A stretch of DNA of 64,000 nt from Chlamydiota bacterium (GCA_012729785.1 JAAYCL010000042.1:29743-93742), one strand, 5' to 3'. Positions 1-60,319 are shown, counted from the stretch's first letter. Notes: a model not told the origin generated them from the letters alone. Translations and numbers: made by a program.

Positions 1-1721
1 CCACGCTCTCCGGGGAGCTGTTGGTCGCCGGCGGGCCGATGGAGACGGTGGGACGAGGGCGCGCCGCGTCGCCGCTCATCACGCGCGATCGCGACCTCGA
101 CGCGCTCTCGAAGCGCGCCGAAACGCTCTCCCGGGACCGGGAGGCGCACACGGCCTCGCGAAACGGGCGGGAGGAGGAGTGCCGCCTGCGCGAGGAGGCG
201 CTTGGGGCGGCGCGCGAGACGCTCCGCCGGGGGGAGATCGAGCTCGCGGAGGCCCGGACCGAGGAGGCCCAGTCCGCGGGGGAGCTCGAGCGGCTCGCGG
301 CCGAGCTCGCGGCGGTGCGCCTGGAGGCGGCGGAGCTGGAGGAACAGCGGCGCGAGTCGGCCTCCCGCGAGGAGCGGATCGGGCGGGAGATCGCCCAGAG
401 CGAGGCGCGGGAGAAGTCGATCCAGGACGACCTGGCCGCCTCGCAGGCGGACACGGAGGCGGCGGGCCGGGGGCTCGAGGAGCGGCAGGCCGCCGCCGTC
501 GACGTGAAGATGCGGCTCGCGGCGGCGGGGGCGCGGGAACGCGCGCTCCGCGCCGATCGCGAGCGCGTCGCGCGAGAAATCGCGAAGGGGAGGGAGGCGC
601 TCGCCGCCAGGACCGCCCAGCGCGATCGCGAGGCGTCCCGGCGCCTCGAGCTCGCCGCGGAGAACGAGGAGCTGCGCCGCTCGATCGACGCCCTCCTCGC
701 CGAGCGGGACACGACCGAGACCGACGCGCGGGAACGGGAGGCGCGCAAATCCTCGCTGTACGAACGGCAGCGGGAACTGGACGAGCTTCTGCGCGAGAAG
801 GTCGCGGCGATGGGCGCCGTGAAGGACCGGGCCGCGGCGGTCGCGGTGTCCCTCGCCGAGCGGGGCGCGGAACGCGCCCGTGTCGTCGAGCGCATCCGCG
901 AGCAGTACGGAGACGATCCGGTCCCCGCCGCGGACGACGCCTCCGCCGAGGAGTGGGCGGCGCTCGAGGCGGAGGGGGCGGAACTCAGGGAGAAGCTCCG
1001 CCGCATCGGGCCCGTCAACATGGTGGCGCTCGAGGAGCACGAGGAGCTCGCCGGGCGGTTGACGTTTCTCACCACGCAGGAGGCCGATCTCCTCTCCGCC
1101 AAGGAGTCTTTGGTGAAGGCGATCGCGAGGATCAACGCCGAGACGACCCGGATGTTCTCCGAGACGTTCCAGGCGATCAGGGGGAATTTCAAGGGGATCT
1201 ACCGGGAGCTCTTCGGCGGGGGGGGCGCGGACCTCCTCCTGGAGGAGGGGGTGGATCTCCTTGAGGCGGGCATCAACGTCGTCGCGCGCCCCCCGGGCAA
1301 GAAGCAGCAGCCCATCTCCCTTCTCTCCGGCGGGGAGCGGGCGCTGACGGCGGTGGCGCTCCTGTTCGCGATCTTCAAGGTGCGGCCGAGCCCGTTCTGC
1401 GTCCTCGACGAGATCGACGCCCCGCTCGACGAATCGAACATCAACCGCTTCCTCGGGATGCTCGGGCAGTTCCTGGCGCAGACGCAGTTCATCATCGTGA
1501 CGCACAACAAGCGCACCATCAGCATGGCCGACGTGATGTACGGGATCACGATGGAGGAGTCCGGGGTCTCGAAGGTCGTCTCCGTCAAGTTCGGGAAGGG
1601 GCATCGCCGGGATGCGCGCCCCGCCGCCCCCGGTTCGGCGGCGGCGGAGGCGGAGCCGGCCCCCGCGGGCGCGGGGACCGGGACCGGCGAGGCGGAGCCG
1701 GACGCCGGGGGGACTGCATGA
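1..1721 (+). CDS. smc: Chromosome segregation protein SMC, C-terminal part (5' truncated by window)
   Basis: Long coiled coil followed by ABC signature LSGGE, Walker B/D-loop PFCVLDEIDAPLD and the HNK switch. Confidence 0.95.
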   Translation, partial: TLSGELLVAGGPMETVGRGRAASPLITRDRDLDALSKRAETLSRDREAHTASRNGREEECRLREEALGAARETLRRGEIELAEARTEEAQSAGELERLAAELAAVRLEAAELEEQRRESASREERIGREIAQSEAREKSIQDDLAASQADTEAAGRGLEERQAAAVDVKMRLAAAGARERALRADRERVAREIAKGREALAARTAQRDREASRRLELAAENEELRRSIDALLAERDTTETDAREREARKSSLYERQRELDELLREKVAAMGAVKDRAAAVAVSLAERGAERARVVERIREQYGDDPVPAADDASAEEWAALEAEGAELREKLRRIGPVNMVALEEHEELAGRLTFLTTQEADLLSAKESLVKAIARINAETTRMFSETFQAIRGNFKGIYRELFGGGGADLLLEEGVDLLEAGINVVARPPGKKQQPISLLSGGERALTAVALLFAIFKVRPSPFCVLDEIDAPLDESNINRFLGMLGQFLAQTQFIIVTHNKRTISMADVMYGITMEESGVSKVVSVKFGKGHRRDARPAAPGSAAAEAEPAPAGAGTGTGEAEPDAGGTA

Positions 1722-1749
1722 GGCGTTCGTTCCGGAAAGGCGGGGCGGG

Positions 1750-2232
1750 ATGTCGTTGTCGATGATCGACAGGATCGTCGGGTATGAGAAGGGGAAACGC
1801 CTCTCGGCGCTGAAGGTGCTGTCGCGCGGCGAGGAGTACCTCGCCGACCATTTCCCCTCGTTTCCGATCCTGCCCGGGGTGCTGATGCTCGAGGCGATGG
1901 TGCAGGCCGGCGCCTGGCTGATGCGTCTGAGCGAGGGGTTCTCCCCGCCGGTCATCGTCCTCCGCGAGGCGCGGGCGGTGCGCTACGGGAACGTCGTGAA
2001 GCCCGGCGACGAACTCAGGGTCGAGGTGGAGCTCGTGCACGGAGGCGGCGGCGAGGCCTCCTTCAAGGGGAGCGGGAGGACGGGGGACAAAAACGCCGTC
2101 CTCGGGCGGTTCGTCCTCAGGCGGGTGCCCCTCGCCCGACTCGGCCCCGGACTGGCTCAGACGGACGAGACGATCGCGCGGCTTCTGGAGGAGCGGCTCC
2201 CCTCGCTCATGGAGTGCGACAGGGGATTGTGA
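1750..2232 (+). CDS. FabZ/FabA-like hotdog 3-hydroxyacyl-ACP dehydratase (copy A)
   Basis: DHFPSFPILPGVLMLEAMVQ motif and VKPGDEL; ATG at 1750 lies in frame within ORF 1612..2232. Confidence 0.85.
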   Translation: MSLSMIDRIVGYEKGKRLSALKVLSRGEEYLADHFPSFPILPGVLMLEAMVQAGAWLMRLSEGFSPPVIVLREARAVRYGNVVKPGDELRVEVELVHGGGGEASFKGSGRTGDKNAVLGRFVLRRVPLARLGPGLAQTDETIARLLEERLPSLMECDRGL

Positions 2233-2254
2233 CGGAGTCGAGGCGGGAGGGCTG

Positions 2255-3013
2255 ATGGAGGCCGTATTCACGGGCGCGTCGGTGCTGGTCACCGGGGGCG
2301 CGCGGGGCATCGGGAGGGCGATCGCGCTCGCGTTCGCCCGGCGCGGCGCCTCCGTCGCCGTCATCCACGCCAGGAACCGTGCGGCCGCGGAGCGCACAGT
2401 CGCCGAGATGCGGAGGCACGGCGCGGCGGCGATGGCGATCTGCTGCGACGTGGGCGACCCGGAGGCGGTCGCGGCCGCGGCGGCGGCGGCCGAGGCGGCG
2501 CACGGACCGATCGAGATCCTCGTCAACTGCGCCGGGGTCGTGCGGGACGCCCTGCTCGCCTCGATGGAGACGGAGGCGTGGCGGGAGGTGATCGACACGA
2601 ACCTGAGCGGCGCCTTCTACTGCATGCGCGCGGTCGTCCCGGGGATGGTGCTCCGGAGGTCCGGGAGGATCATCAACGTCTCGTCGCTCGCCGGGGAGCG
2701 CGGCGGGCGGGGCCAGGCGAACTACGCCGCGTCGAAGGGGGGGCTGAACGCCTTGACCCGGGCGGCAGCGCTCGAACTGGCGCCGCGCGGGATCACCGTG
2801 AACGCGGTGGCCCCGGGGATGGTGGTGACGGAGATGACGGAGACGGTGCGCGGGCTCGCCGGCGACAGGCTCAAAAAACGGATCCCCGCACGGCGTTTCG
2901 CGGAGCCCGAAGACATCGTCGGGACGGTCCTGTTCCTTGCCTCCGCCGCGGCCTCGTACCTGACCGGGCAGGTGATTGCTGTGGACGGCGGCCTCGGCGC
3001 TGCGATAGAATAA
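2255..3013 (+). CDS. fabG: 3-oxoacyl-ACP reductase (SDR family)
   Basis: TGGARGIG, NCAG, NYAASK (YxxxK) and NAVAPG motifs; GGAGG RBS; adjacent to ACP. Confidence 0.9.
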   Translation: MEAVFTGASVLVTGGARGIGRAIALAFARRGASVAVIHARNRAAAERTVAEMRRHGAAAMAICCDVGDPEAVAAAAAAAEAAHGPIEILVNCAGVVRDALLASMETEAWREVIDTNLSGAFYCMRAVVPGMVLRRSGRIINVSSLAGERGGRGQANYAASKGGLNALTRAAALELAPRGITVNAVAPGMVVTEMTETVRGLAGDRLKKRIPARRFAEPEDIVGTVLFLASAAASYLTGQVIAVDGGLGAAIE

Positions 3014-3114
3014 TTCTCTATTCGCGTCTCACGTCGCGGAGGCAGCGGACAACGAACGCGTGAGCACTGCGCCGCCGTCGGGCGCGGCGTCCGGAATACG
3101 AGCAGGAGGGGGAG

Positions 3115-3498
3115 ATGGTGGACAAGAGCCAAGTCTACGGGAAGATCAAGGAGTGTCTGGTGGAGGCGCTCGGCGTCGAGGAGGCCGAGATCGTTCCCGG
3201 CGCCCGCATCATGGACGATCTCGGGGCCGAGTCGATCGATTTCCTCGACATCGTCTTCAGGCTCGAGAAGGCGTTCGGCATCAAGATCCCCCGCGGCGGC
3301 CTCTTCCCCGAAAACATCCTCTCCAACGACCAGTTCGTCAAGGACGGGAAGGTGACCGCGCGGGGCATCGAGGAACTCAGGAAGCGGATGCCGTGCGCGA
3401 ACCTCGCCTCGTTCGAGAAGGACCCCCGCGTGAGCAACTTCTCGAACCTCTTTACCGTCGAGATGATCAACCGCTATGTCGAGAGCATGCTCGGCTGA
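3115..3498 (+). CDS. Acyl carrier protein with a long internal insertion (127 aa)
   Basis: DDLGAESIDFLDIVFRLEKAFGIKIP phosphopantetheine helix and terminal FTVEMINRYV helix; strong RBS. Confidence 0.9.
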   Translation: MVDKSQVYGKIKECLVEALGVEEAEIVPGARIMDDLGAESIDFLDIVFRLEKAFGIKIPRGGLFPENILSNDQFVKDGKVTARGIEELRKRMPCANLASFEKDPRVSNFSNLFTVEMINRYVESMLG

Positions 3499-3904
3499 GC
3501 GGGGAGGGACGCCCGGACGCCCGGTTCCCCTCTCCGTGGGCGCGGACATCGTCGAGATCGGCTCCATGGCCCGTCTCCTCCGCCACGGGACGCCGCGCCT
3601 CCGCAGGGTCTTCACCCCCGCCGAGTTATCCGCGCGCGGCGGCCCGGCATCCGTGCGGCGGGACCTCCGCCTCGCCTGCGCCTTCGCCGGCAAGGAGGCG
3701 GTCTTCAAGGCGCTGGGGCGCGGGTGGGGGCAGGGGCCGCGGTGGCGCGAGGTCTCCGTGGTCAGGACGCCGGGAGGCCGCTGGGAGGTCCGGCTCTCGG
3801 GGGGGGCGGAGAGGAGGAGACGGGAGATGGGCGCGTCGTCGATCGAGCTCTCCGTCGCGAAGACGCGCGGGCACGCGGTGGCGTGCGCAATCCTGTACGG
3901 GTGA
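3476..3904 (+). CDS. acpS: Holo-ACP synthase (AcpS-type phosphopantetheinyl transferase); start uncertain
   Basis: VGADIVEI, RVFTPAE, FAGKEAVFKALG and ELSVA motifs. Confidence 0.85.
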   Translation: MSRACSAERGGTPGRPVPLSVGADIVEIGSMARLLRHGTPRLRRVFTPAELSARGGPASVRRDLRLACAFAGKEAVFKALGRGWGQGPRWREVSVVRTPGGRWEVRLSGGAERRRREMGASSIELSVAKTRGHAVACAILYG

Positions 3905-3908
3905 TTCG

Positions 3909-4364
3909 ATGCGCTGGATTCACATCGAGGAGTGGCGCGAGACCGCGGCGGGGGAGTCCGCCGAGGCGGTCCGCACGGTCCCGTCCGACCTCGACTTCAT
4001 GCACGACCAGTATCCGTCGTTCCCCCTGATGCCCCACAGCCTCCTCATCGAGTCGATGGCGCAGACCGGGGGCATCCTGGTCGGCAAGCTCCACGGCTTC
4101 CGGCGCGATGTCATCCTCGCCAAGATCGACCGGGCCGTATTCACGGCGCTCACCCGCCCCGGCGACCGCCTCCAGGTGACCGCCAGAATCGAGGAGCGGC
4201 GGGAGGAGGGGGCGCGGGTCGCCTGCCGCATCACCCGCCAGGGTGAGGAGGTCGCGCAGGCGACGCTCTTCTTCGCGCTCCTCGGCGCCGAGGACGCCGG
4301 GAAGCTCGGTGCGCGCGGGTTCGTCTTCGAGGCGGGGACGTTCTCCCAATTCATCGGGGGCTGA
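3909..4364 (+). CDS. FabZ-like hotdog dehydratase (copy B) with the catalytic His apparently replaced
   Basis: MRWIHIE...DQYPSFPLMPHSLLIESMAQTGG...TRPGDRL; ATG 3909 is the C-terminal part of ORF 3060..4364. Confidence 0.8.
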   Translation: MRWIHIEEWRETAAGESAEAVRTVPSDLDFMHDQYPSFPLMPHSLLIESMAQTGGILVGKLHGFRRDVILAKIDRAVFTALTRPGDRLQVTARIEERREEGARVACRITRQGEEVAQATLFFALLGAEDAGKLGARGFVFEAGTFSQFIGG

Positions 4365-5583
4365 CCGCGGGGGCGAGCAGGTGGAGCGCGGCGCGCTGCT
4401 TCACCCGGTCGTCGAGGGAGAGGAGCATCTCCGCCACCGCGCGCGGGGGTGGCGGCGGGTCCAGCCGCTCGGCGCGCGCGCAGCCCCGGAGCCCGAAGGC
4501 GCGCGTTGCCATCCTGATCCCGTGCGTCACCAGCAGGCCGTTCGCCCCCTCCAGCGGAAGCCCCGACGCGAGCGTCCCCAGCGCGGCGAGCTCGAGCTGT
4601 TCCCGCACCCTGAGCTCGGGGATCGCCCCCGCCCCCTCCCTCAGGAGCGCGAGGTAGAGCAGCGCGGCCGCCCGCGCGTCGTTCACCGCCCGGTGCCACC
4701 CCTCGAAGGCGATGCCCATCAGGCGCGCCATATCCCCGAGACGGTGGCCGGGCGCGTCCGGGTGGAGCCACCGGGAGAGGGCGAGCGTGTCCTCGGCGCG
4801 CCCCCCCGCCTCGCGGCCGAGGCCGAGCAGCGTCTGCTGCCGGAGGAAGGCGAGGTCGAAGGGGGCGTTGTGGGCGACCAGGATGCGCCCCCCGCAGAAG
4901 CCGAGGAGTCCCCGCAGCGCGTCCGGGGCCGCGGGCGCGTCCCGCACCATCTCCTCCGTGATCCCCGTGATCCCGCTGATCTCCTCGGGGATGGGGCCGC
5001 CGGGTTTCACGAAGGTCGAGTAGGCCTCGACCTCGGCGCCGTCGGCGAACCTGACGGCGCCGATCTCGATGATCTCGTCCGCCCACGGGTCCCTGCCGGT
5101 GGTCTCGAAATCGAATGCGACGAAGTCGGACGGATAGTCCAAGGCGCCGCGGCGCGCCGCGGCGTCCACCAAGGCGAGCGCCGCTCCGGAAAGCGAGCAT
5201 CCCGGGGGGGGACAAATCGAAACGCCCGCCCCGCCCTCGAGGATTCCGAGTCGTGTGCCCTGAACCGTCACCCGGAGGCTCGGCCGCGCGGGAACGGCGT
5301 CGAACAGATCGCCCTGCAGGCGGGGCGCGGGGATGTCGAGGCGGGCCGCGAGGGCCAGGACGATCGCCGCCGCAGCGACGGCATCCCCGGAATCCTCGAC
5401 CGAGATCTCAACGGGGCGTTGCGCGGCGGCGGCGTCCAGGAGCGCCTCGACGGCGCCCTCGACGCCCGAAGGAGGGGGGGAAGGGAGGAGGGGGAAGCGC
5501 AGCGGCGAGGAGACCGCATACGGAGGTCGCAGTCGGTCCCTGAGGTATCCGTCGATGCACGCGGGAACCTTGAAAGGCTTCAC
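4351..5583 (-). CDS. DEDDh (DnaQ/epsilon-like) 3'-5' exonuclease embedded in a degenerate RecJ-like scaffold
   Basis: DFETTG, HNAPFD and HRAVND Exo motifs; flanks resemble RecJ segments; GTG start at 5583 after GGGG. Confidence 0.8.
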   Translation of the reverse strand: MKPFKVPACIDGYLRDRLRPPYAVSSPLRFPLLPSPPPSGVEGAVEALLDAAAAQRPVEISVEDSGDAVAAAAIVLALAARLDIPAPRLQGDLFDAVPARPSLRVTVQGTRLGILEGGAGVSICPPPGCSLSGAALALVDAAARRGALDYPSDFVAFDFETTGRDPWADEIIEIGAVRFADGAEVEAYSTFVKPGGPIPEEISGITGITEEMVRDAPAAPDALRGLLGFCGGRILVAHNAPFDLAFLRQQTLLGLGREAGGRAEDTLALSRWLHPDAPGHRLGDMARLMGIAFEGWHRAVNDARAAALLYLALLREGAGAIPELRVREQLELAALGTLASGLPLEGANGLLVTHGIRMATRAFGLRGCARAERLDPPPPPRAVAEMLLSLDDRVKQRAALHLLAPAVSPR

Positions 5584-5666
5584 ATCCCCGCCGCCTTTGT
5601 CTGCGCCGAAAAAACGGCGGAGGGAGACCCGTTCGGGGTCCCCCTCCGCGCGCCCCATGCGACTCG

Positions 5667-15096: not shown

Positions 15097-15252
15097 CGAG
15101 GCGAGGGCCTTCCGCCCCGCGCGCGCCGCGGCGGGGGGCGTGCGTGCGCCGGTTCCGGGCGGCGGCACGGAGGCGCGCCTCGATCGGCAACCGATCGCGC
15201 CGTTATTTATCCTTGCCGGTCGGCGGGGGTATGCGATAATGTCCCTTGCGTC

Positions 15253-15945
15253 ATGCACCGGGTCACCTACTCCAAAGAGGGGCTGATTAGGTTCATCTCC
15301 CACCTCGATCTCATCAGGCTCTGGCACAGGGCGTTCAGGAGAGCCGGCCTGCCGGTGAGGATGTCGCGCGGATTCACGCCGCATCCGTCCGTGTCGTTCG
15401 GCCCGCCCCTGCCGCTTGGCGTGGCGGGACAACGGGAGATGCTCGACGTCGCGTTCGACGTCGGCTGCGACCTCTCGGGGGCGCGGGAACGGCTTCAGCA
15501 GGCCCTCCCCGCCGGGGTTCGCGTCGTCGAGCTCCGGCCGGTCCCGGAAGACGGCCCGTCGCTCTGCGCGGAACTGGATCGCGCGACGTACGAGGCGGAG
15601 CTGTGCGGCGCCGAGGCGAACGGCGCCGCGGAGAAGATCGCGGCCGCGCAAGCCGCCGCGAGCATCGTCGTGAAGAAGCATACCGCGAAAGGGGAGCGGT
15701 ACCGCGACATACGTCCCCTTGTGCACCGGCTCGAATGCGGAGAAGGCCCCGGGGGCACCGTCCGGCTCACCTGCACGGTCGGCGTCGGGGACAAGGGGAA
15801 CCTGAACCCGCACGAGCTTCTCGAGGCGCTGCTCGGGGTGCCGGCGGAGCGCGCGAGGGAGATCCCCGTCACGCGCACGGCGCTCCACACGAGCAGGGAC
15901 ACGTCACAGGACAGGCCGCGCGGGCCTGCGTTGAAGAGGCGGTGA
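15253..15945 (+). CDS. Radical-SAM-linked protein, TIGR03936/DUF2344-like
   Basis: YSKEGLIRFISHLDL..RAFRRAGLP..SRGFTPHPSVSFGPPLPLG; usual position upstream of rne/rng. Confidence 0.85.
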   Translation: MHRVTYSKEGLIRFISHLDLIRLWHRAFRRAGLPVRMSRGFTPHPSVSFGPPLPLGVAGQREMLDVAFDVGCDLSGARERLQQALPAGVRVVELRPVPEDGPSLCAELDRATYEAELCGAEANGAAEKIAAAQAAASIVVKKHTAKGERYRDIRPLVHRLECGEGPGGTVRLTCTVGVGDKGNLNPHELLEALLGVPAERAREIPVTRTALHTSRDTSQDRPRGPALKRR

Positions 15946-17683: not shown

Positions 17684-18799
17684 TCAGGCCGCCCGGACGA
17701 ACGCCATCACGATCTCGAACAGGATGAGCAGCACGATGATCAGTTCGAGCAGGTTGGAGCGCATGTTGTAGGCGCGCATCGTGAGGGTGTCGGAGATTTC
17801 GCCTAGCGCCGCGAGCTTGCGGTCGAGCCCCCGCTTCCATTCGTTGAGATAGAGGCGCGCGCCGATGGCGCGGTGCACCCGCGCGGCGTAGAGGGTGTCG
17901 ATCGCCTTGAGCGAGTTGTCGATCTGGTCGGTGAGCCAGACGACCTCCGCCATCAGCAGCATCGTGCGCTTGGAGAGACGGCGCACCCCCGTCCCGACGA
18001 GGGTCGACCCGCGCCCCCCCTCCCGGCGGATGTCGCGTTCCAGCGCGTCCAGCTCCCCGTCCAGCCACCAGTCGTAGTACCGCATCTCGAGGAGCTGGGT
18101 GTTGGCGAACTCGATGATGTGGATATGGTCGGTGTGCTCCTCCCGGTCGTAGATGAACGCCCGGTCCCAGTCCACCACGAGCAGGTCGTCGGGGTAGTAG
18201 GAGATGCGGTTCGAGAGGGCGTTGGCCGTCTCCTGGGCGCTCAGCGGACGCTCCTCGGCCCTGAGGATCCTCGCGATCTCGTCTCCGTGCCGTTCGATCA
18301 ACTCCTGTTCGGTCAGCGGCTCGTCCAGGCGTGTGACATGGATGATGGTATAGTCCTCCACGAGGTCGCTCTCGATCGGGCGGTGGAGGGCGGGGGCGAC
18401 GATGCCGCGCACCTTCCGGAGGTAGTGCGCCGAGAGCGCGGGGAACGGCCCCTCCTCGGAGAGCTCCGCGGAGAGGGCGGCGAGCGTCTCGAGGCCGCCG
18501 TGGAACGGCAGCGAGAAGCGGAGGCTGACCACGCCGTAGTCGAAGACGCGCGCCTGCACCGACACGGACACGGCCGCATGGCGGAGCCGCACCTTCTCCT
18601 CGCCGAGCCGGATGATGAGCGGCAGATTCTCGAAGCGGAGGTAGTGGCTCCTGGAGCGGCGCATCGACAGGACCCCCTCGGTCTGCTGCGCGCTGAGGAG
18701 CCTCTCGAGCGTGTCCACCTTCACCGCGTAGGCGAGCTCGTGGCAGTAGAAAAGATGTACGGCGCCCCTGACGACGGGGCCGCGGCCGCGCGTGGTCAT
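17684..18799 (-). CDS. Conserved protein, DUF155/RMD1-like, with C-terminal TM helix
   Basis: RVFDYGVVSL, DLLVVDWDRAFIYD, EFANTQLLEMRYYD, LELIIVLLILFEI; RBS GGAGGAG. Confidence 0.65.
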   Translation of the reverse strand: MTTRGRGPVVRGAVHLFYCHELAYAVKVDTLERLLSAQQTEGVLSMRRSRSHYLRFENLPLIIRLGEEKVRLRHAAVSVSVQARVFDYGVVSLRFSLPFHGGLETLAALSAELSEEGPFPALSAHYLRKVRGIVAPALHRPIESDLVEDYTIIHVTRLDEPLTEQELIERHGDEIARILRAEERPLSAQETANALSNRISYYPDDLLVVDWDRAFIYDREEHTDHIHIIEFANTQLLEMRYYDWWLDGELDALERDIRREGGRGSTLVGTGVRRLSKRTMLLMAEVVWLTDQIDNSLKAIDTLYAARVHRAIGARLYLNEWKRGLDRKLAALGEISDTLTMRAYNMRSNLLELIIVLLILFEIVMAFVRAA

Positions 18800-18914
18800 T
18801 CGTCTCCTCCAACGATACAGTATACCAGAGTTCAGGGAGGGGGGCGTCTCCGGAAGGCCCGTATTGCGGGGGCCGGCAGTCCGTGCTACATTGAAAAACA
18901 AAGGGAAACGTTCG

Positions 18915-20309
18915 ATGCCGCGTCTGCAAAAAGTCCTCCTCATCGTCGTCGCCTGCGTCCCGTGGGGCGCCCCCGCCGCCGGCGCGCCGAGGGAGCTTCT
19001 CCGCTTCGAGCGCGGCGATTCGTTGGAGACGCTCCGCTTCAAGATCAGGCACAACGGCTACTCGTTCACGGTCGGCCGCACCTGGGTCTACGATCTCTCC
19101 CCGGATGCGCGGGAGGCGATGCGCGGCCGCCGTCCGGGCGCGGTCGTCGCCTCCGCCGCGGACGACATCGGCCCGCTGGCCAACCGCCTCGGGGAAACGC
19201 TCCCCGAAAAGTTCGACTGGCGCGACCTCGCCGGACGCTCCTACATAGGCCCGATCCGGAACCAGGGGACCTGCGGCTCGTGCTACGCCTTCGCCGCGGC
19301 GGCCGCGGCGGAGGGGACGTACAATTTCGCCCTCGGCATGTACGACGGCGCCTGCGTCGATTTCTCCGAGGCGTTCATCGTCTGGTGTCTCGGCGCACTG
19401 CCGGAGTACCAGACCCACCTCTACGGCTGCGGCGGCGCCGATTACAAATACGCGGAGCTCGACGCCCTCACCCGCGAGGGGATTCCGTTCGAGTCGGTGT
19501 TTCGGTATGCCGACGAGGATTCGCAGGCGTGCCCCGACGCGGCCCGTGCCGCCCCGCGGGCGGTGTTCAAATCCTGGCACCGGATCACCAGCGGCGACAT
19601 CGAGGCGATCAAGACCGCGATAAACGCCTACGGCCCGGTGGACGCGGCGGTTTTGACGAACGATGCGTTCCTCGCCTATACGGGAGGCGTCTACGATGAC
19701 GCCAACACCGACTGTCCGGATGGCGACCAGACGGAGACGGACCACGCGGTCTCGCTTGTGGGATGGGACGACAGCCCCCCGGATGGCGGAGGGGGATACT
19801 GGATCCTGCGGAACTCGTACGGACGGGACTGGGGCGAGGACGGCTACATGCGGATACGCTATGGCGCCGCGAGGGTCTCATGCGCGGTCAGCTACCTTGT
19901 CTACGACGCCTCCGCGGGCCCGGTGCCCACGCCGGTCCCTCCGGTGCTCCTCTCATGCGCCCCCGACCCTCCCACGGTGGGAGCCCCGTTCACCGTCGAC
20001 GTGACGGTACAGCCCTGGTCGGGGCGGACGGTGGATGCGTGGGCGGTCATTTTCAGTCCGCAGGGCGCCGTCTACTCGTTCAATCCCGCCGATCCCGCCT
20101 CCCTCCTGAACCGTGCCGCGCCGCTGGCCGTCTCCATCCCGGGGCTCGCGGGCGCGTATTCGCATCGGCTGCTCGCCCTGACCGTCCCGCAGGGCGTTTC
20201 CGGGGGCTACCGGATCGTCGCCGGGCTCGTGCCGGCGGGCGTGGCGCCGACCGGTCCCGAGAGCGCGGTCGACGGCTATCTGGCGCAGCGGGAGATCGTC
20301 GTCCCCTGA
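18915..20309 (+). CDS. Secreted papain-like C1A cysteine protease with C-terminal beta-rich domain
   Basis: FDWR, QGTCGSCYAF (Gln/Cys), DHAVSLVGW (His), WILRNSYG (Asn); signal peptide. Confidence 0.9.
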   Translation: MPRLQKVLLIVVACVPWGAPAAGAPRELLRFERGDSLETLRFKIRHNGYSFTVGRTWVYDLSPDAREAMRGRRPGAVVASAADDIGPLANRLGETLPEKFDWRDLAGRSYIGPIRNQGTCGSCYAFAAAAAAEGTYNFALGMYDGACVDFSEAFIVWCLGALPEYQTHLYGCGGADYKYAELDALTREGIPFESVFRYADEDSQACPDAARAAPRAVFKSWHRITSGDIEAIKTAINAYGPVDAAVLTNDAFLAYTGGVYDDANTDCPDGDQTETDHAVSLVGWDDSPPDGGGGYWILRNSYGRDWGEDGYMRIRYGAARVSCAVSYLVYDASAGPVPTPVPPVLLSCAPDPPTVGAPFTVDVTVQPWSGRTVDAWAVIFSPQGAVYSFNPADPASLLNRAAPLAVSIPGLAGAYSHRLLALTVPQGVSGGYRIVAGLVPAGVAPTGPESAVDGYLAQREIVVP

Positions 20310-20983: not shown

Positions 20984-21022
20984 GGGGGAACCGAGGCGGT
21001 GATACCAAGCGGAGCGGTGCGG

Positions 21023-21421
21023 ATGACAAAGATCGGATCGGTTCGGATGGCGGCCGCGGCGCTGCTGCTTTCGGGGGCGGGCCTGTGCTGCGGGTGCGAC
21101 CGGCTGCAGGGGGTGCTCGACTCGCTCGGCGGGGTCTTCGGGGGCGCGGCGGCGTCGGGGAAGAGGAGCGCGCTCGCGAGCGATCATGCGCGGGTGCTGC
21201 GCAGGTTCGGGGAGCCGCGCGAGAAGATCGGGGTGGGGAGGAAACCCCGCACGGAGAACGGCATCAGCCACGACCGCAAGTGGAACTACTACTACCCCTC
21301 CCGGCCCGGCGCCAAGCCGGTGATGCGGACCGTCTACTTCCTGAACGACCGGTGCGTCGGCTCGGTCATCCACCAGCCCGACGGAAAGATCAGGAAGGAG
21401 ACCCTCCGGTTCAGCTACTGA
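21023..21421 (+). CDS. Hypothetical lipoprotein
   Basis: Hydrophobic leader ending GLCCGC; GC3-biased coding pattern. Confidence 0.6.
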   Translation: MTKIGSVRMAAAALLLSGAGLCCGCDRLQGVLDSLGGVFGGAAASGKRSALASDHARVLRRFGEPREKIGVGRKPRTENGISHDRKWNYYYPSRPGAKPVMRTVYFLNDRCVGSVIHQPDGKIRKETLRFSY

Positions 21422-21455: not shown

Positions 21456-21998
21456 CTACTCCACCATCCCCGCCGCGTCCAAGGCGCGCTCCCCCTCGAC
21501 GATCTCGGCGTCGCTCGGGGCCTCGGACGGCGGGGGAGGGAGGGGAGGCGCGTCCGCGGGGACGAGCTGCGGTTCGGGATCGGGGGGCGCCCCGGCGGGC
21601 AGGGCCACCTGCTCGGTCACCGTCTCCACTCCCGGCGGGGGGACCAGCATCTGCCCCATCGCCTCCACCTTCACCTTCCGGTCCTTCTTCTTCCCGTCCG
21701 CCCCGAGGAAGGTCAGCTTGATCGAGTCCTTCAGCATCGAGGGGATCCGCACCGCGAACGAGCCGTCGGCGGCGACCATCCCGGCGGCGCTCTGCTTGGT
21801 CTTCTTGCTCTGCGCCATCACCCGCACCGGCGCCAGCCCGCCGATCACGGTCCCCGGCGCCCCTTGGACGACGACGAACCCCTGCGCGTCGATCGGGCTC
21901 ACGGCGATGGTCTCCTTGACGATTTTGATGTCGACCCCGCCGGCGTGCGCGGCGCCGGCGAGGAGGAGAAGAACGGCTGCTGCTGCGATCGTCTTCAT
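21456..21998 (-). CDS. Hypothetical secreted protein with Pro-rich tail
   Basis: MKTIAAAAVLLLLAGAAHA signal peptide; GGTATACT -10 upstream. Confidence 0.65.
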   Translation of the reverse strand: MKTIAAAAVLLLLAGAAHAGGVDIKIVKETIAVSPIDAQGFVVVQGAPGTVIGGLAPVRVMAQSKKTKQSAAGMVAADGSFAVRIPSMLKDSIKLTFLGADGKKKDRKVKVEAMGQMLVPPPGVETVTEQVALPAGAPPDPEPQLVPADAPPLPPPPSEAPSDAEIVEGERALDAAGMVE

Positions 21999-22189
21999 GC
22001 GGTGCGGCCCCCTCGTGTTGTCCGGTTTCCCAGAGCAGTATACCCGAGCCCGCGCGCGGAGGGCAACGGGGAACGGCGACCCCTTCGGCGCCGCGGACGC
22101 GTCGGCGCGCGGGGTTTCCCACGGCGCGGTTGCGTCTGCCGCTCGCAGGGCATATACTACCCCCCGCTGCGCAACGGAAGGAATGCGAA

Positions 22190-22870
22190 ATGGACACGCT
22201 GAAGACGAAGGCGGTGGGGCGGATCGAGGAGGCGATGCGGGGCGTCGAGGATGGGTCGCTGCGGCACCGGATCTTGAAGAGCGCCAAGGAGTTCAAGGTT
22301 TCATGGGTGGAGCTCGGCAGGGCGCTCTACACGGCATGGAAAGACAAGCTGTTCAAGTCGTGGGGCTACACGACCTTCGACGCCTACACCGCCGGGGAGA
22401 TCGGCATACGGAAGGCGACGGCGCTGAAGCTCCTCAAGTCGTACTACTTCCTCGAGAAGGAGCGCTCGCCGTACCTCGACGAGGAGTACCTGGACTCCTC
22501 CGAGGCGGTCAGGGTGCCGCCGGTCGAGTCGATCGACCTCCTGCGGCGCGCGAAGGAGGGGAAGAAGATCGACGAGGAGGATTATGCGGCGCTGCGCTCG
22601 TCGGTCTTCGAGAAGGGGAACGACCCCGGCGACGTCAAGCGCGAGCTCACGCGGATGATCACGCAACGGCGGGAGCTCGATCCCGACGAGGCGTTCGCGA
22701 CGCGGCAGCGGGCGGCGCTGAAGCGGCTTCTCGGGACGCTCCGGTCGCTCGCTCGGGAGGCGGAGGTCTCCACGCTCCTCTCCGCGGCGCTGCTCCGGGA
22801 GATCGCGGGGCTTGTGCAGAGACTCGAGGCGGAACTCGGCGGCGCGGCGGGACGGGGGGAGGAGCGATGA
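22190..22870 (+). CDS. Conserved hypothetical helical protein (possible DUF3102-like/HTH N-terminus)
   Basis: FKVSWVELGRAL..WGYTTFDAYTAGEIGIRKATALKL; strong coding bias; overlaps the next gene by ATGA. Confidence 0.65.
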   Translation: MDTLKTKAVGRIEEAMRGVEDGSLRHRILKSAKEFKVSWVELGRALYTAWKDKLFKSWGYTTFDAYTAGEIGIRKATALKLLKSYYFLEKERSPYLDEEYLDSSEAVRVPPVESIDLLRRAKEGKKIDEEDYAALRSSVFEKGNDPGDVKRELTRMITQRRELDPDEAFATRQRAALKRLLGTLRSLAREAEVSTLLSAALLREIAGLVQRLEAELGGAAGRGEER

Positions 22871-23450: not shown

Positions 23451-23483
23451 TGTAAGCGCTTCTAAGCCCGAGGTGTCAAGACA

Positions 23484-23942
23484 ATGTTCTACGGCCAGTT
23501 CAGACATTCGATTGACAGCAAGGGACGCCTGATCATCCCCGCCAAATTCAGGGACGCGCTCCGCGAGAATTACATCGAGAAGTTCTGGGTGACCCGCGGC
23601 ATCGAGCGCTGCGTCTACGTCTACACCCCGCGCGAGTGGAACCTCCTGATGGCGAAGTTCAAGGAGCTCTCCCTCACCGCCGGGAAGGCGAGGGACTTCC
23701 TCCGGGGCATGGTCTCCAACGCCTCCGAGGTCGAATGCGACAAGCAGGGGCGGATCATGCTCCCGCAGAACCTCCTCGCGCTCGCCGGGATCACCCGGGA
23801 CGTGGTGGTGGCGGGGATGCTGAGCAGGTTCGAGATATGGGACGAGGCGAGCTGGAAGAGGTACGAGGAGGAGCGAGGGGAGAACTTCGAGGAGATCGCC
23901 GAACAGCTCAACGCGCAGCTCGATGCGGCGCGGGGGCTGTGA
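23484..23942 (+). CDS. mraZ: Division/cell wall cluster transcriptional repressor MraZ
   Basis: MFYGQFRHSIDSKGRLIIP and DKQGRIMLP repeats. Confidence 0.95.
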   Translation: MFYGQFRHSIDSKGRLIIPAKFRDALRENYIEKFWVTRGIERCVYVYTPREWNLLMAKFKELSLTAGKARDFLRGMVSNASEVECDKQGRIMLPQNLLALAGITRDVVVAGMLSRFEIWDEASWKRYEEERGENFEEIAEQLNAQLDAARGL

Positions 23943-24031
23943 GGGGACCGGGCGGGGGGACGCGCACGACGATGCATGCGGCGACGGGATCGACGGTGTT
24001 CGGGAAGCTGGAATTCGGGAGGGGGGTTCTG

Positions 24032-24247
24032 ATGAGACCTGCTCGAACGAGAAGGCCGCTTGCCGAGAAGATCCTCTTCTGGTGCCCCAGACTCGCCTCG
24101 GCGCTCACCGCGGCATGCGCGAAGGATGCGCGGCGGGGGGGGGGCGACGCGGGGACGCTGGCGTCGATGATGGCCGTGAGCGGGAGCATCGACCGCGCGG
24201 GGCGGGCGAGGAACTACTACCGGTTCTACATCCGCCCGATGGCCTGA
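24032..24247 (+). CDS. Small hypothetical protein (71 aa; alternative start 23972) coupled to rsmH
   Basis: GGGAGG RBS; TGA overlaps the rsmH ATG (TGATG); mostly G/C third positions. Confidence 0.5.
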   Translation: MRPARTRRPLAEKILFWCPRLASALTAACAKDARRGGGDAGTLASMMAVSGSIDRAGRARNYYRFYIRPMA

Positions 24248-25173
24248 TGGATGCGCCCCACCTTCCGGTGATGCGGGAGGAGGCGCTGCGGTTGCTCGGC
24301 CTCCGGCCGGGGATGCGCGTGGTCGACGCGACGGTGGGGTGCGGGGGGCACGCGGAGGAGATCGCGAGGCGGATCGGGCCCGGCGGGGTGTTGGTGGGGC
24401 TCGATTGGGACGGGGAGGCGCTCGAGATCGCGCGGAGGCGGCTCGAGAAGGCGGGCCCGGCGGTGCGGTTGCACCGGCGAAGTTTCGCGGAGCTCGCGGC
24501 GGTGCTCGCGGAAGAGGGGATCGGGGAAGCGGACGCACTGCTCTTTGACCTCGGGGTTTCGAGCTTGCAGCTCGACACGGCGGCGCGAGGATTCGGGTTT
24601 CGCGCCCGGGGACCCCTGGATATGCGGATGGACCGGCGCCGCGGCGTCACCGCGGAGGCGCTCCTCAGGGAGAAGGATCCGCGGGAACTGGAGCGGATCT
24701 TCAGGGAGTACGGCGAGGAGACGCTGGCGCGGCCGATCGTTCGGGAGTTCCTCAGGGCGGGCGCGCCGCGCGACACGGAGGCGCTCGCCGGGATCGCGTC
24801 GCGGGTCTACCGGCGCTTCGGGAGGAAGGGCGCGATCCATCCGGCGACGCGGATCTTTCAGGCGCTCCGGATCGCGGTGAACGACGAGCTCGGCGCCCTC
24901 GCCGCGGCCCTGCCGCAGGCGGCGGCGGCGGCCGCGAAGGGGGCGCGGATCGTGGTGATCAGCTTTCACTCGCTCGAGGACCGGATCGTGAAGAGGGCGT
25001 TCGCGGAGGGGGCGCGCGGGTGCATCTGCCCGCCGGGATTGCCGGTCTGCGGGTGCGGCGCCGCGGCGGCGCTGCGGCTGATCACGCGCAAGCCGCTGCG
25101 GCCGACAGCCGAGGAGACGGCGGCGAACCCGCGGGCGCGGAGCGCGCGGTTGCGGGCGGCGGAGAAGCTGTAA
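24247..25173 (+). CDS. rsmH: 16S rRNA m4C1402 methyltransferase
   Basis: HLPVMREE, DATVGCGGH, DLGVSSLQLD, HPATRIFQALRIAVNDEL, ISFHSLEDRIVK, NPRARSARLR. Confidence 0.95.
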   Translation: MDAPHLPVMREEALRLLGLRPGMRVVDATVGCGGHAEEIARRIGPGGVLVGLDWDGEALEIARRRLEKAGPAVRLHRRSFAELAAVLAEEGIGEADALLFDLGVSSLQLDTAARGFGFRARGPLDMRMDRRRGVTAEALLREKDPRELERIFREYGEETLARPIVREFLRAGAPRDTEALAGIASRVYRRFGRKGAIHPATRIFQALRIAVNDELGALAAALPQAAAAAAKGARIVVISFHSLEDRIVKRAFAEGARGCICPPGLPVCGCGAAAALRLITRKPLRPTAEETAANPRARSARLRAAEKL

Positions 25174-25182
25174 ACGGCGTTG

Positions 25183-25329
25183 AACGCGCACACGGGGGCA
25201 GGCCGGGATGGACGGAAGATCTTTATCCGCATCCATTGAAGAGACCAGGAGCTGCGCGGTGCAGCTCGTCAATGATGCACCTCCAACCCTAAAGGTCCCT
25301 GCCGTCGCCGGTCCTGCTCCCGGCGCGTT
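25183..25329 (+). ncRNA. Candidate rod-shaped structured RNA with central bubble (6S-like or novel)
   Basis: About 52 nested base pairs traced by hand over 147 nt; three G-U pairs favour the + strand. Confidence 0.45.
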
Positions 25330-25366
25330 TTCGGATTCCGCGGCTCGAGGCGGGGAGGGCGGAGCG

Positions 25367-25711
25367 ATGCAGCGGGTCCTGATCGTCGACGACGAGCCGG
25401 TCGTGAGGAGGCTCATCGGGATATACCTGCGCGGGCGCTTCATCGTGGAGGAGGCCGAGGACGGCGAGAAGGCGCTTCGCAAGGCCGCCGGCGGCGGGTA
25501 CGACTACGTGATCACCGATGTGCAGATGCCGCGGATGGACGGTCTGCACCTGCTCGGGGAGCTCAAGCGGATCTGTCCGCGCACCTCGGTCATCGTGATG
25601 TCGGCGCTCGGCGAGCTCTACGCCGAGTCGGCGATGGAGCGCGGCGCGCAGACGGTCATCTCGAAACCGTTCGTGCGGGACACGATCCAAACCGCCCTGC
25701 AGTGCGCCTGA
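25367..25711 (+). CDS. Single-domain (CheY-like) response regulator
   Basis: VLIVDDE, ITDVQMP (phospho-Asp), VMSA and SKPF motifs; no output domain. Confidence 0.9.
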   Translation: MQRVLIVDDEPVVRRLIGIYLRGRFIVEEAEDGEKALRKAAGGGYDYVITDVQMPRMDGLHLLGELKRICPRTSVIVMSALGELYAESAMERGAQTVISKPFVRDTIQTALQCA

Positions 25712-25743
25712 ACGCGGCGCGCGGCGGCGGAGGAGGAGCGGGG

Positions 25744-26166
25744 ATGAGGAAGAGGAACCGGAGGCTCAACGAGGGGTTCTCGACCGCCGCGCTCACCGGC
25801 AGATGGATGCTCGTCGCCGTCATCGCGGTCTCGTTGTCGCTCCTCTACGTCTGGCAGCATGTGCAACTGGTGCGCACCGGGTACGCCATCAAGAGGATGG
25901 AGCGGGACCTCGAGAAGTGGCAGAAGGCCAACGAGGCGCTCCACCTCGCCAACGAGCGGCTGAAGAACCCGCAGCGCGTCGAACAGGCGCTCATGCACAA
26001 CAAGCTCGGCCTGGTCTTTCCGCAGGCCAAGGATATCGTCCGGCTTCGCTACCCCCGCCATTCAAAGGCATACGGGAGGGATATATCGGGGAGCGAAGGG
26101 GGCACCGACACTCTTCTGAGCTATATGAGTGGCGGGGGCAGCGCGGCCGGACGGCACAACAGCTAG
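25744..26166 (+). CDS. ftsL: Cell division protein FtsL-like
   Basis: Basic N-terminus, one TM helix, coiled coil ending LKNPQRVEQ..LGL; position just before the PBP gene. Confidence 0.75.
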   Translation: MRKRNRRLNEGFSTAALTGRWMLVAVIAVSLSLLYVWQHVQLVRTGYAIKRMERDLEKWQKANEALHLANERLKNPQRVEQALMHNKLGLVFPQAKDIVRLRYPRHSKAYGRDISGSEGGTDTLLSYMSGGGSAAGRHNS

Positions 26167-26257
26167 TGGCGGTCGCCCCGCCTCCAGGGGCGGGGGTGCG
26201 AGGCGCACCCGTTGTGGGGCGGGGGCGCGTCGGCGGACGCGAAAAGGCGAGTGTGCG

Positions 26258-27988: not shown

Positions 27989-28025
27989 AAATCGATCAGA
28001 AGGCGACGGGGAGGGGGCGGAACAG

Positions 28026-29480: not shown

Positions 29481-29548
29481 TCACGCGGGAGGAGAGGCGG
29501 GCGGGGCGGCCGGAGTGGCGCGGCCTGATCGGGAGGAGCGAGCTCCGG

Positions 29549-30946: not shown

Positions 30947-30970
30947 GGCGCACGAGACGGTGAGGGACGC

Positions 30971-32068: not shown

Positions 32069-32110
32069 GACGCGCGCGGCGCGCGGCGGGACCGGAGAGG
32101 GCGGACGGGG

Positions 32111-33466: not shown

Positions 33467-33505
33467 ACCCCGCCTGCTGAAACGACGGAGGGAAAGGAGG
33501 ACCGG

Positions 33506-34354
33506 ATGAGCAGGAGAACCCTGGTGGCGGTGGTGGCCGCGGCGCACCTGTGCGTGCTCGTCGTGCTGGCGCTGAGCGGCGGCTGCGCCTTCGACAGGAA
33601 GGAGCCGAAGCTGATGGCGGCGGGGCCCGTGCAGGAGATCCGCGCGCCGGAGGGTGAGCCGGAGTCCATCCTCGAACCGAAGGGGATGGCGGAGGAGTTG
33701 GACCTGCTGGTGTCGCGCGAACCGGAGCTGATCCCGGCCGTGCGGGAAGAGGCCGTGGAGCCGGAAGCGGCCGCGGCGGCGACCGCCGCCCCCCCGACCC
33801 CGCTGCCGTTCGTCGAGGCGCCGCCCGCGGCGGAGAAGGCGGAAGCGCCCGGTAAAGAAACGATCGCCGAGGCGCCCGCCGGGACGACGCACAAGGTCGC
33901 GCCCGGCGAGAGCCTCTGGAAGATCGCGCGCAGGTACGGGCTCACCGTCGCCGAGCTCGCCTCGCACAACAACCTCCCCCCCGACGCGCGGCTGAAGGCC
34001 GGCCGGCTGCTCTCCGTGCCGGCGCCGTCGGCGGGCGCGGCGGCGCCCGCGGCCGCCGCGGCGCCCGCGGCCGCCGCGGTGACCGAGACCGCCCGGCCGG
34101 CCGTCGTCGCGGAGCCCGCGAGGGGGCCGGTCATCCGGCGGCCCGCCCCACGCCCCGCGGCGCGGGCCGTCGCCCCGGCGGCGCCGCGCCCCGGCGCGGC
34201 GGCGGTCACGCGGCATCTGGTGAAGAAGGGGGAGACCCTCTCGTCGATCGCCAGGATGCACGGCGTGCCGTTGCAGCGGATCGTCGCCGCCAATGAGATC
34301 AAGGACGCGGGGAGGATACGCGCGGGGCAGGTTTTGACGATACCGCTCCGGTAG
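33506..34354 (+). CDS. Lipoprotein with two LysM domains
   Basis: Lipobox LSGGC; HKVAPGESLWKIARRYG and HLVKKGETLSSIARMHG; Ala/Pro linker. Confidence 0.9.
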   Translation: MSRRTLVAVVAAAHLCVLVVLALSGGCAFDRKEPKLMAAGPVQEIRAPEGEPESILEPKGMAEELDLLVSREPELIPAVREEAVEPEAAAAATAAPPTPLPFVEAPPAAEKAEAPGKETIAEAPAGTTHKVAPGESLWKIARRYGLTVAELASHNNLPPDARLKAGRLLSVPAPSAGAAAPAAAAAPAAAAVTETARPAVVAEPARGPVIRRPAPRPAARAVAPAAPRPGAAAVTRHLVKKGETLSSIARMHGVPLQRIVAANEIKDAGRIRAGQVLTIPLR

Positions 34355-34405
34355 CGTGGCGGCGCGGGCGAAACGGACAACGGCAGGCGGAAGAGGGAAC
34401 AACCG

Positions 34406-60318: not shown

Positions 60319-60319
60319 G

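Follow-up and report, generated by a model that had tools for sequence, protein, structure and literature searches.

Positions 1750-4364 of a 64,000-nucleotide stretch of DNA deposited under the name Chlamydiota bacterium (GCA_012729785.1, JAAYCL010000042.1:29743-93742; the whole stretch is referred to as the window) hold five genes encoding an unusually long acyl carrier protein (ACP), an AcpS-type phosphopantetheinyl transferase, a beta-ketoreductase (KR), and two FabZ-like hotdog proteins, here named hd1 and hd2. This module (locus A) is very probably one half of a specialised type II acyl-chain synthase that is split between two genome sites, the other half, with the ketosynthase (KS), being encoded at locus B. 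The long-ACP synthase, a type II system that is uncharacterised and very widespread, has at its centre an unusual ACP with an insert. In the clade of the window and in some Planctomycetota the gene content suggests that it is tied to amide-forming lipid chemistry of the GH3 type.

A preliminary description of the window, made from the sequence alone, proposed either a private tailoring line working on chains made or scavenged elsewhere, with an acyl-CoA ligase encoded at 42548 as a possible loader, or a specialised-lipid cluster split across the genome. The latter has held up: a KS follows hd2 in homologous loci, the missing half is found on a second contig in three related metagenome-assembled genomes (MAGs), and it was also recovered for the window organism (contig L100). 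The tailoring line is not needed to explain the module, as these MAGs and the window organism keep the other half, and the ligase found no support as a loader.

Loci A and B of the long-ACP synthase

Relatives of the long ACP number in the thousands; they are about 126-133 amino acids long, display 60-85% identity, and are found in Planctomycetota and Candidatus Auribacterota/Aureabacteria. A scan using one genome per species found the long ACP in at least 586 species-level genomes, mostly from Planctomycetota. The usual cluster layout was counted by mapping reference proteins with tblastn onto the best 80 loci from these genomes, a set dominated by Planctomycetota. The hd1 gene precedes the ACP gene in 71 of the 80 loci and the hd2 gene follows it in 74, a KR is encoded in 24, and AcpS is encoded in a single locus. 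The comparison of synteny between homologous ACP loci that the preliminary description had called for shows that a KS is encoded directly after hd2 in 64 of the 69 loci with at least 1.8 kb of downstream sequence. Twelve loci encode two KSs after hd2. The hd2-proximal one has lost the active-site Cys and/or the second His and is therefore regarded as similar to a chain length factor (CLF), while the distal one has the full Cys-His-His triad. Further downstream an alpha/beta-hydrolase and a GH3 protein are encoded in 8 of the 51 loci with at least 6.5 kb of downstream sequence. The contiguous loci of the Auribacterota type (L002, L003, and L009) display the order hd1-KR-ACP-AcpS-hd2-CLF-KS-alpha/beta-hydrolase-GH3-methyltransferase-DUF1571-DUF1571-MR_MLE.

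Four Planctomycetota loci (L031, L045, L059, and L086) encode hd1-ACP-hd2 with no KS within 6.8-9.5 kb downstream, and splitting of the cluster has probably happened more than once. One contig, L078, is labelled 'Actinomycetes bacterium', yet it carries the Planctomycetota-type set KS-KS-alpha/beta-hydrolase-GH3-methyltransferase-DUF1571 as well as a long-ACP gene near which no hotdog genes are found; this combination suggests that the contig is mis-binned. The GH3 gene of this contig (L078:2937-4667) has an in-frame stop codon and could be a pseudogene, contain a recoded codon, or reflect an assembly error.

The layout of the window, with smc followed by the five genes and then by convergent genes and with no KS, is also found in four relatives (L004, L089, L090, and L091). 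Compared to the window, their proteins are 71-83% (ACP), 65-69% (KR), 55-67% (hd1), 58-59% (hd2), and 76-78% (FabF) identical. Searches using the GH3 protein of L002 and the KS of L092 led to contigs with locus B. Three MAGs of this clade (Candidatus Auribacterota/Aureabacteria) have the two loci on separate contigs, locus A and locus B being, respectively, L004 and L096 in GCA_028716845.1, L089 and L094 in GCA_026392035.1, and L091 (GC content 57.5%) and L092 (56.3%) in GCA_026392015.1. The gene order of locus B is comEC-(DUF3006)-CLF-like KS-KS-methyltransferase (PF12147)-GH3-DUF1571-MR_MLE_C-alpha/beta-hydrolase-two extended short-chain dehydrogenases/reductases (SDRs)-alpha/beta-hydrolase-hypothetical-rplU-rpmA-obg. 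As the same split is seen in three related MAGs, it is taken to apply throughout the clade.

Searches with KS and GH3 proteins had suggested that no locus B exists in the window species, as no hit showed its abundance signature (many contigs, contigs longer than 100 kb). This was rejected when JGI metagenome contigs were scanned using aligned GH3 proteins of the clade, which returned L100. The word-seeded protein search is not exhaustive, and it missed even the KS of L096; in addition, the number of contigs listed for a protein does not follow abundance. L100 is a 200.6-kb contig from metagenome 3300009770, which also contains the window sequence (as L006). It holds a complete locus B in the clade gene order, the ten genes of which were all confirmed by both Pfam and NCBIfam. 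The GC content is 70.1%, compared to 70.7% for L005, a second contig with the window module, and the proteins are 58-76% identical to those of L096, a divergence that equals that of locus A from L004. The KS of L100 has the motifs TACAAS, HGTST, and GHL (Cys-His-His). Its CLF-like neighbor keeps the Cys and the first His and has GDL for GHL, so that Asp replaces the second His; the CLF-like proteins of some other lineages have no Cys. A pair of the KS:CLF type, that is a Cys-His-His KS beside a KS-like protein with an incomplete triad, is thus encoded at locus B, outside the window. The protein P0253 (one contig, 11 member sequences) displays the same identity to the L096 KS as does the L100 KS (75.467%), and is therefore probably the same protein.

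Searches of a word index found window:1750-4364 at a word share of 1.00 in 18 public runs, and L100:6522-11692 at the same share in 15 of these (X1-X14 and X16). The runs with both loci span nine studies of bioreactors, manure, and wastewater. Assembly depths were compared in four runs from different studies using contigs 100% identical to A and B, and were 41.8 for A and 39.3 for B in X1, 15.3 and 16.5 in X5, 13.7 and 13.8 in X10, and 13.2 and 11.8 in X12. Co-occurrence, depth, GC content, and divergence together are strong, though indirect, evidence that L100 and the window belong to one genome. From locus A, locus B is more than 62 kb away on the right or more than 8 kb away on the left. 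The organism itself is near-clonal over many data sets from anaerobic digesters, manure, sludge, and wastewater collected in 2016-2025 (X1-X18 and X30-X47), with contigs that are 100% identical across 2.6-5.2 kb between runs of different studies.

The lack of KS, FabD, and enoyl reductase genes in the 64 kb, which was part of the preliminary description, was confirmed. Each open reading frame (ORF) with a coding-type GC content in the third codon position (GC3) was scanned against Pfam, the first ~12 kb by way of precomputed calls on the identical locus L005. No matches to PF00109, PF02801, PF08541, PF00698, or NMO were found across the window; that is, the survey found no ketosynthase, KAS III, malonyl transferase (FabD), or NMO/FabK enoyl reductase there, nor any SDR besides the KR. 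However, L005, which was found by an exact look-up of the hd1 protein, is from the same organism, is identical over the shared stretch, and reaches 8.2 kb to the left of the window. Its gene order is fabD-fabG (245 aa)-acpP (81 aa)-fabF (412 aa)-acyl-CoA dehydrogenase-etfB-etfA (with a ferredoxin domain)-smc-hd1-KR-long ACP-AcpS-hd2. The fabD-fabG-acpP-fabF set ends ~5.4 kb left of base 1, so the absence of KS and FabD is partly an effect of where the window starts. The FabF encoded here is a true FabF (643.9 bits on TIGR03150, cut-off 493.75). It is a housekeeping enzyme whose gene is separated from smc by three others, not a paralog of the cluster type directly before it, and the adjoining gene for the 81-aa AcpP means that the long ACP is not the only ACP of the genome. 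With an ordinary type II fatty acid synthase (FAS II) nearby, the module is not the sole ACP, KS, and acyltransferase set, and the long ACP is therefore a second, specialised carrier. The notion of a synthase line without a condensing enzyme has consequently been abandoned, as locus B encodes ketosynthases and an ordinary FAS II is encoded just outside the window.

Proteins and transcription of locus A

All five genes reported earlier for positions 1750-4364 are present on the plus strand directly 3' of smc, each backed by Pfam and NCBIfam (Table 1). The GC content of the window is ~71%, and genuine genes are set apart by a GC3 of 0.85-0.95. The smc stop codon and the hd1 start are 28 bp apart, and the following distances are 22 bp (hd1-KR), 101 bp (KR-ACP), -23 bp (ACP-AcpS, unless AcpS starts later), and 4 bp (AcpS-hd2). 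At its 3' end hd2 shares 14 bp with a convergent RNase_T gene. This gene forms the right-hand border of the module, exactly at the site that is occupied by the ketosynthase gene(s) in other genomes. In L089-L091 ComEA or another gene is found at this position, likewise without a KS.

Table 1. Features of locus A and its immediate surroundings in the window.
Feature	Position	Strand	Evidence or remark
smc, 3' part	21..1721	+	ORF; SMC_N/SMC_hinge Pfam calls on identical locus L005
hd1, FabZ/ApeI-like hotdog dehydratase, 160 aa	1750..2232	+	Pfam FabA-like PF07977, E=1.5e-16
KR, FabG-type 3-oxoacyl-ACP reductase, 252 aa	2255..3013	+	Pfam adh_short_C2, E=2.7e-65; KR domain
Sigma-70-like promoter match, TGGACG-18 nt-TAGAAT	2982..3011	+	Only match in 1500-4700; 1 found, 0.1 expected
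Long ACP, 127 aa	3115..3498	+	Pfam PP-binding, residues 10-59 only
AcpS-type 4'-phosphopantetheinyl transferase, 142-aa ORF	3476..3904	+	Pfam ACPS PF01648, E=3.7e-13
hd2, second FabZ/ApeI-like hotdog, 151 aa	3909..4364	+	Pfam FabA-like, E=2.7e-8
RNase_T/DEDDh exonuclease gene, convergent	4351..5658	-	Pfam RNase_T, E=1.2e-30; synteny in L004 and L005

The 'giant ACP' of the preliminary description is an accurate name, as the protein is a four-helix ACP plus an insert of ~45-50 residues. Canonical helices I and II, with Ser40 within DLGAESIDFLD, are followed by the insert (about residues 55-105) and then by helices III and IV. In an AlphaFold model (pLDDT 88) residues 4-19 form helix I, residues 40-54 form helix II, which begins with Ser40, and residues 106-126 form helices III/IV, and the modelled insert of ~50 residues holds a short beta-bridge and two helices. 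Foldseek searches gave ordinary ACPs as the best PDB matches (TM 0.80-0.85, normalised on the target). Solved ACPs align to residues 2-62 only, and none covers the insert. The score of 54.1 bits does not reach that of a canonical AcpP (NCBIfam ACP cut-off 71). Within the family the motif DLGAESIDFLDIVFRLEK.F.IK.PRG.LFP is nearly invariant, and so are many positions in the extra segment. The window ACP has all 45 invariant columns of one alignment (A1) and all 31 of another (A2). Its length, its motif, and the position of its insert between helices II and III place it in the long-ACP family (~127-133 aa).

Both hotdog proteins match the ApeI-like family PF22818 in precomputed calls, and the two differ when it comes to their catalytic residues. 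hd1 has both the His (DHFP) and the Glu (LEAM), 14 residues apart, and this motif is kept in 76 orthologues. It is not a canonical FabZ, as it scores 79.2 bits, which is below the cut-off of 113 (NF000582). In hd2 Gln is found in place of the catalytic His (HDQYP), while the Glu is retained (IESM), and the score is 62.1 bits compared to a cut-off of 155 (TIGR01750). Among 78 hd2 orthologues the Glu is always kept, and the His has been replaced by Gln or Tyr in many lineages. In 71-74 of the 80 loci the ACP gene stands between genes for two diverged hotdogs, and the His is dispensable in hd2, not in hd1. In dimers of the FabZ type each active site is made up of the His of one subunit and the Glu of the other. 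From these motifs hd2 is likely to be a non-catalytic or Glu-donating partner of hd1, and the pattern of conservation fits an hd1:hd2 heterodimer with one active site.

The KR has the motifs TGGARGIG, Ser, and YxxxK. Its score is above the cut-off of the FabG subfamily model NF009466 (264.7 bits compared to 222) and below that of TIGR01830 (275.4 compared to 297.75); a separate housekeeping fabG adjoins acpP in L005. AcpS passes TIGR00556 (55.6, cut-off 45.35). The start codon of its gene is uncertain, as in the 142-aa ORF the domain starts only at residue 20 and the start of the ORF overlaps the ACP gene by 23 bp. AcpS is encoded at this position only in loci of the Auribacterota type (the window, L002-L004, L009, and L089-L091). 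Since only one of the 80 Planctomycetota-dominated loci has it within the module, it may be the only holo-ACP synthase of the genome rather than a dedicated one.

Both loci are covered by contigs from the metatranscriptome runs X33, X36, and X37. One X33 contig (1604-3138) spans hd1 and KR as well as the end of smc, a second (3123-4456) covers ACP-AcpS-hd2, and a contig from X36 (2589-3701) joins KR-ACP-AcpS. Contig depth in X37 is ~10 on ACP-AcpS-hd2 compared to ~2-4 on hd1-KR. The sigma-70-like match at the end of the KR gene is situated just upstream of the ACP gene and is weak evidence for a promoter. The contigs fit read-through from smc combined with an internal promoter, contig depth being a poor measure and carry-over of DNA a possible contributor.

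Relationship to known systems and a possible product

By analogy, the aryl polyene (APE) type II polyketide synthase is the closest known architecture. It comprises the ACPs ApeE/F, the KS:CLF pair ApeO:ApeC, the KR ApeQ, the dehydratase pair ApeI:ApeP, and the LolA-like protein ApeL. Both systems consist of discrete enzymes that serve an ACP of their own. Shared features are a KS paired with a KS-like protein of impaired catalytic function, a KR similar to FabG, two distinct hotdogs of the FabZ type (PF22818, ApeI-like), a methyltransferase, and a LolA-like protein for the envelope, and neither cluster has an enoyl reductase. However, the ~45-50 residue insert of the long ACP is absent from solved ACPs, and the cluster is divided into two loci in the window's clade. 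Neither locus contains the APE families for starter activation, anchoring, and export (ApeH, ApeD, ApeJ, ApeK, and ApeM); an AMP ligase of the ApeH type, an ApeD/ApeJ acyl- or glycosyltransferase, an ApeK hotdog thioesterase, and an MMPL exporter are all absent. Their place is taken by genes for an amide synthetase of the GH3 family, a racemase of the enolase type, alpha/beta-hydrolases, and extended SDRs. The APE clusters are found in Proteobacteria and Bacteroidota, while the long-ACP cluster is found in Planctomycetota and Auribacterota.

When it comes to the chemistry of the late steps, the closest analogue is OlsH/OlsI/OlsG. OlsH is a planctomycete GH3 protein from Singulisphaera acidiphila that makes N-acyl ornithine from free fatty acid and ATP, and it shares an operon with the alpha/beta-hydrolase O-acyltransferase OlsI and the methyltransferase OlsG (PMC12493201). 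The fatty acid used by OlsH has to be free and is preferably 3-hydroxylated, and the acyl donor of OlsI was left open in that study, which does not mention any ACP, KS, or dehydratase neighbors (PMC12493201). A dedicated ACP line could be the source of both. As in the OlsH operon, a GH3 protein, an alpha/beta-hydrolase, and a S-adenosylmethionine (SAM) methyltransferase are encoded together, and the bacterial group is the same. The latter two families stand beside GH3 in L002, L009, L092, L094, L096, and L100, which is a match at the family level only. The long-ACP cluster differs in that it adds an enzyme of the racemase-type enolase family. On the OlsH model the GH3 of L100 scores 93.4 bits, that of L002 110.4, and nine other cluster-linked GH3s 99-125 bits, compared to a cut-off of 620. 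An identity as OlsH orthologue and ornithine-lipid cluster was for this reason rejected, and the chemistry was retained as an analogy.

Second, specialised ACPs have been described in other bacteria. An anammox planctomycete possesses an amxACP with its own FabZ-like dehydratase and FabF-like KS beside a canonical FAS II, and amxFabZ works only on its own ACP (PMC10139942), a precedent for carrier-specific processing. Unlike the long-ACP system, amxACP is an ordinary four-helix ACP for which no insertion is mentioned, and amxFabZ is homohexameric (PMC10139942). The amxACP cluster has radical SAM and phytoene-desaturase-like genes and no GH3, CLF-like KS, or hotdog pair (PMC10139942). The ordinary amxACP and the different gene composition led to rejection of the ladderane cluster as the identity of the module. 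The AcpXL system of Rhizobium and RPA2022 (PDB 2KW2/3LMO) are similar in having a second ACP, dedicated FabZ- and FabF-type genes, and a special acyl chain for an envelope lipid. However, ACPs of this type are ~92-101 aa long with C-terminal extensions, while the insert of the long ACP is internal, and the partner enzymes differ. RPA2022 aligns to residues 8-61 only of the window ACP. A full-text literature search of incomplete coverage turned up nothing on the long ACP or its cluster, an outcome that counts as absence of evidence and no more, and a paper on Auribacterota from Ace Lake contains nothing on lipid or fatty-acid genes.

Taken together, locus A would provide the carrier, AcpS, the beta-ketoreductase, and a two-protein FabZ-like dehydratase. 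Locus B would provide the KS and its CLF-like partner, a SAM methyltransferase, a GH3 ATP-dependent acyl-acid amide synthetase, an enolase-superfamily enzyme of the N-acyl-amino-acid racemase/dipeptide epimerase type, two alpha/beta-hydrolases, two extended SDRs, and a DUF1571 (LolA-like) protein. In the proposed pathway AcpS would convert the long ACP to its holo form and the housekeeping FabD would load it with malonyl units. The KS:CLF pair would then condense and elongate the chain on the long ACP, the KR would reduce the beta-carbon, and hd1:hd2 would dehydrate it, the His of hd1 and the Glu of hd2 forming the one active site, of two per dimer, that is functional. No enoyl reductase is encoded in either locus, so unless a housekeeping reductase is borrowed the chain should be 3-hydroxylated or unsaturated. 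A hydrolase may then free the acid, and the GH3 protein may adenylate it and couple it to an amino acid, giving as a candidate product a lipid of the N-acyl amino acid type. The MR_MLE protein could racemise the conjugate, and methylation and O-acylation are also proposed. In NCBIfam the MR_MLE protein scores best against N-acetyl-D-Glu racemase, L-Ala-D/L-Glu epimerase, and o-succinylbenzoate synthase, each time under cut-off. The DUF1571 protein may hand the lipid to the envelope or outer membrane; one such protein from L002/L003 has a weak match to the TP_0789-like family, which we take to be LolA-like.

It is possible, and at present a tentative reading, that this constitutes an undescribed pathway of Planctomycetota and Auribacterota in which a 3-hydroxy or unsaturated chain made on a private carrier ends up in an N-acyl (possibly D-) amino acid lipid of the membrane or outer membrane, the ACP insert being the specificity element that separates the line from the housekeeping FAS II. 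Several points weigh against the split synthase and its proposed product. The cluster GH3s are only distant paralogues of OlsH according to their scores. The amide step appears to lie outside the universal core hd1-ACP-hd2-KS, as GH3 was found in 8 of 51 loci. The hd1:hd2 and KS:CLF heteromers are proposals drawn from sequence motifs and from a comparison with ApeI:ApeP and ApeO:ApeC. Loci A and B are found on no common contig, their assignment to one genome resting on the four lines of evidence given above, and contigs from RNA runs can contain DNA, as those of X30, with lengths of 20 kb, plainly do.

A self-contained tailoring line, in which the housekeeping FabD/FabF (~7 kb upstream) or a ligase/acyl-ACP synthetase loads the long ACP independently of locus B, is unlikely. 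It would agree with the layout fabD-fabG-acpP-fabF-acyl-CoA dehydrogenase-etfBA-smc-module being kept throughout the clade, with locus A being intact without an adjacent KS in relatives that display only 55-83% identity in the module proteins, and with the few Planctomycetota loci that also have no adjacent KS (L031, L045, L059, and L086). However, a KS is the next gene in nearly all informative loci (64 of 69), and the orthologous KS/CLF half is kept in three clade MAGs and in the window organism. The AMP-binding ligase (42548-44149) is 38 kb away from the module, cut off from it by the whole dcw cluster, and is linked to neither locus in the relatives; synteny and co-occurrence give no support for it as a loader, and it was rejected.

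More doubtful still is a housekeeping role, with AcpS as the sole holo-ACP synthase, one or both hotdogs as the FabZ of the cell, and the long ACP as a redundant second AcpP. AcpS may have been placed here incidentally as an essential gene, given its rarity in the Planctomycetota loci (1 of 80), no canonical fabZ was seen in the ~74 kb examined, and the neighborhood is core genome (smc, fab genes, and the dcw cluster). Yet hd1, hd2, and the ACP score well under the equivalog cut-offs (79 versus 113, 62 versus 155, and 54 versus 71), a canonical 81-aa AcpP, FabG, FabF, and FabD are encoded nearby, hd2 has no catalytic His, and the insert and the 31-45 invariant residues of the ACP point to special partners. 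It is hardly credible that locus A is a relic, decaying after the cluster broke up and retained only because AcpS is essential. The module is physically separated from its KS, and the catalytic His of hd2 is Gln in the window and is kept in the relative L004, but the same change is found in L002 and L009, both of which have complete contiguous clusters. The family-invariant ACP residues, the His/Glu of hd1, and the KR motifs are all intact, as are the five ORFs in four diverged relatives and locus B itself, and both loci are found in metatranscriptome assemblies.

If the aminolipid pathway proposed above is correct, it would answer where the free 3-hydroxy fatty acids and the acyl donors for aminolipid synthetases of the GH3 type come from. 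The link between the cluster and GH3 is a concrete, testable idea for the acyl supply to amino-acid lipids, and the long ACP with its flanking hotdog pair marks an uncharacterised cluster in hundreds of genomes from Planctomycetota and related bacteria. The organism is an uncultured member of the Auribacterota that is common in anaerobic digesters, and a signature envelope lipid could serve as a biomarker. For genome mining there is a caution, as a KS that is 'missing' from a 64-kb view can reflect cluster splitting or the edge of a window. Cluster-based tools, antiSMASH among them, are likely to overlook or mis-score locus A in this clade.

Other genes in and around the window

Beyond the RNase_T gene, genes for ComEA and thymidine phosphorylase follow on the minus strand, and the remaining window is core genome (the dcw cluster, ileS, lspA, lgt, rluD, gmk, rplM, and argC). 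The dcw cluster (23466-40887) includes mraZ, rsmH, ftsI, murE, murF, mraY, murD, ftsW, murG, murB, ftsQ, ftsA, and ftsZ; murC was not seen within it. A gene for a response-regulator receiver protein (25184-25711) is found at the usual place of ftsL, and a gene for a LysM-domain protein (33467-34354) is situated between murD and ftsW.

Five ORFs with coding-type GC3, one of them encoding a 457-aa protein, have no Pfam match at E<=1e-4: 17684-19057 (-), 20984-21421 (+), 21456-22292 (-), 21929-22870 (+), and 41079-42528 (+). At 59755-60997 only the CoaB domain (DFP, PF04127) was found, at 60218-60997, and no call was obtained for the preceding 460 bp, the expected place of the CoaC flavoprotein domain of coaBC. 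An ORF at 60319-62235 reads across an apparent tRNA-like stretch that precedes a gene for an FAD oxidase (DAO).

A radical SAM protein with a PF19864 N-terminal domain is encoded at 45140-47953 (+); the GC3 signal is weak in the 5' part, and the actual gene covers ~46400-47950. No Pfam match was found for a long ORF antisense to it (46082-48568). A DUF2344 protein is encoded at a different place in the window (15097-15945), and such proteins are frequent partners of radical SAM proteins.

To the left of the window, the genes for the acyl-CoA dehydrogenase, etfB, and etfA between fabF and smc are found at L005:3012-6265 (~5.2 to 2.0 kb left of base 1). The etfA product has an N-terminal 2x[4Fe-4S] ferredoxin domain, and the arrangement is also found in L004 and L089-L091 and is thus kept clade-wide. 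The best NCBIfam match of the dehydrogenase is acryloyl-CoA reductase AcrC (478 bits, under the cut-off of 640), and together the three proteins, which might also stand in as the enoyl reductase of fatty-acid synthesis, could form an Etf-coupled enoyl-CoA reductase of a fermenter.

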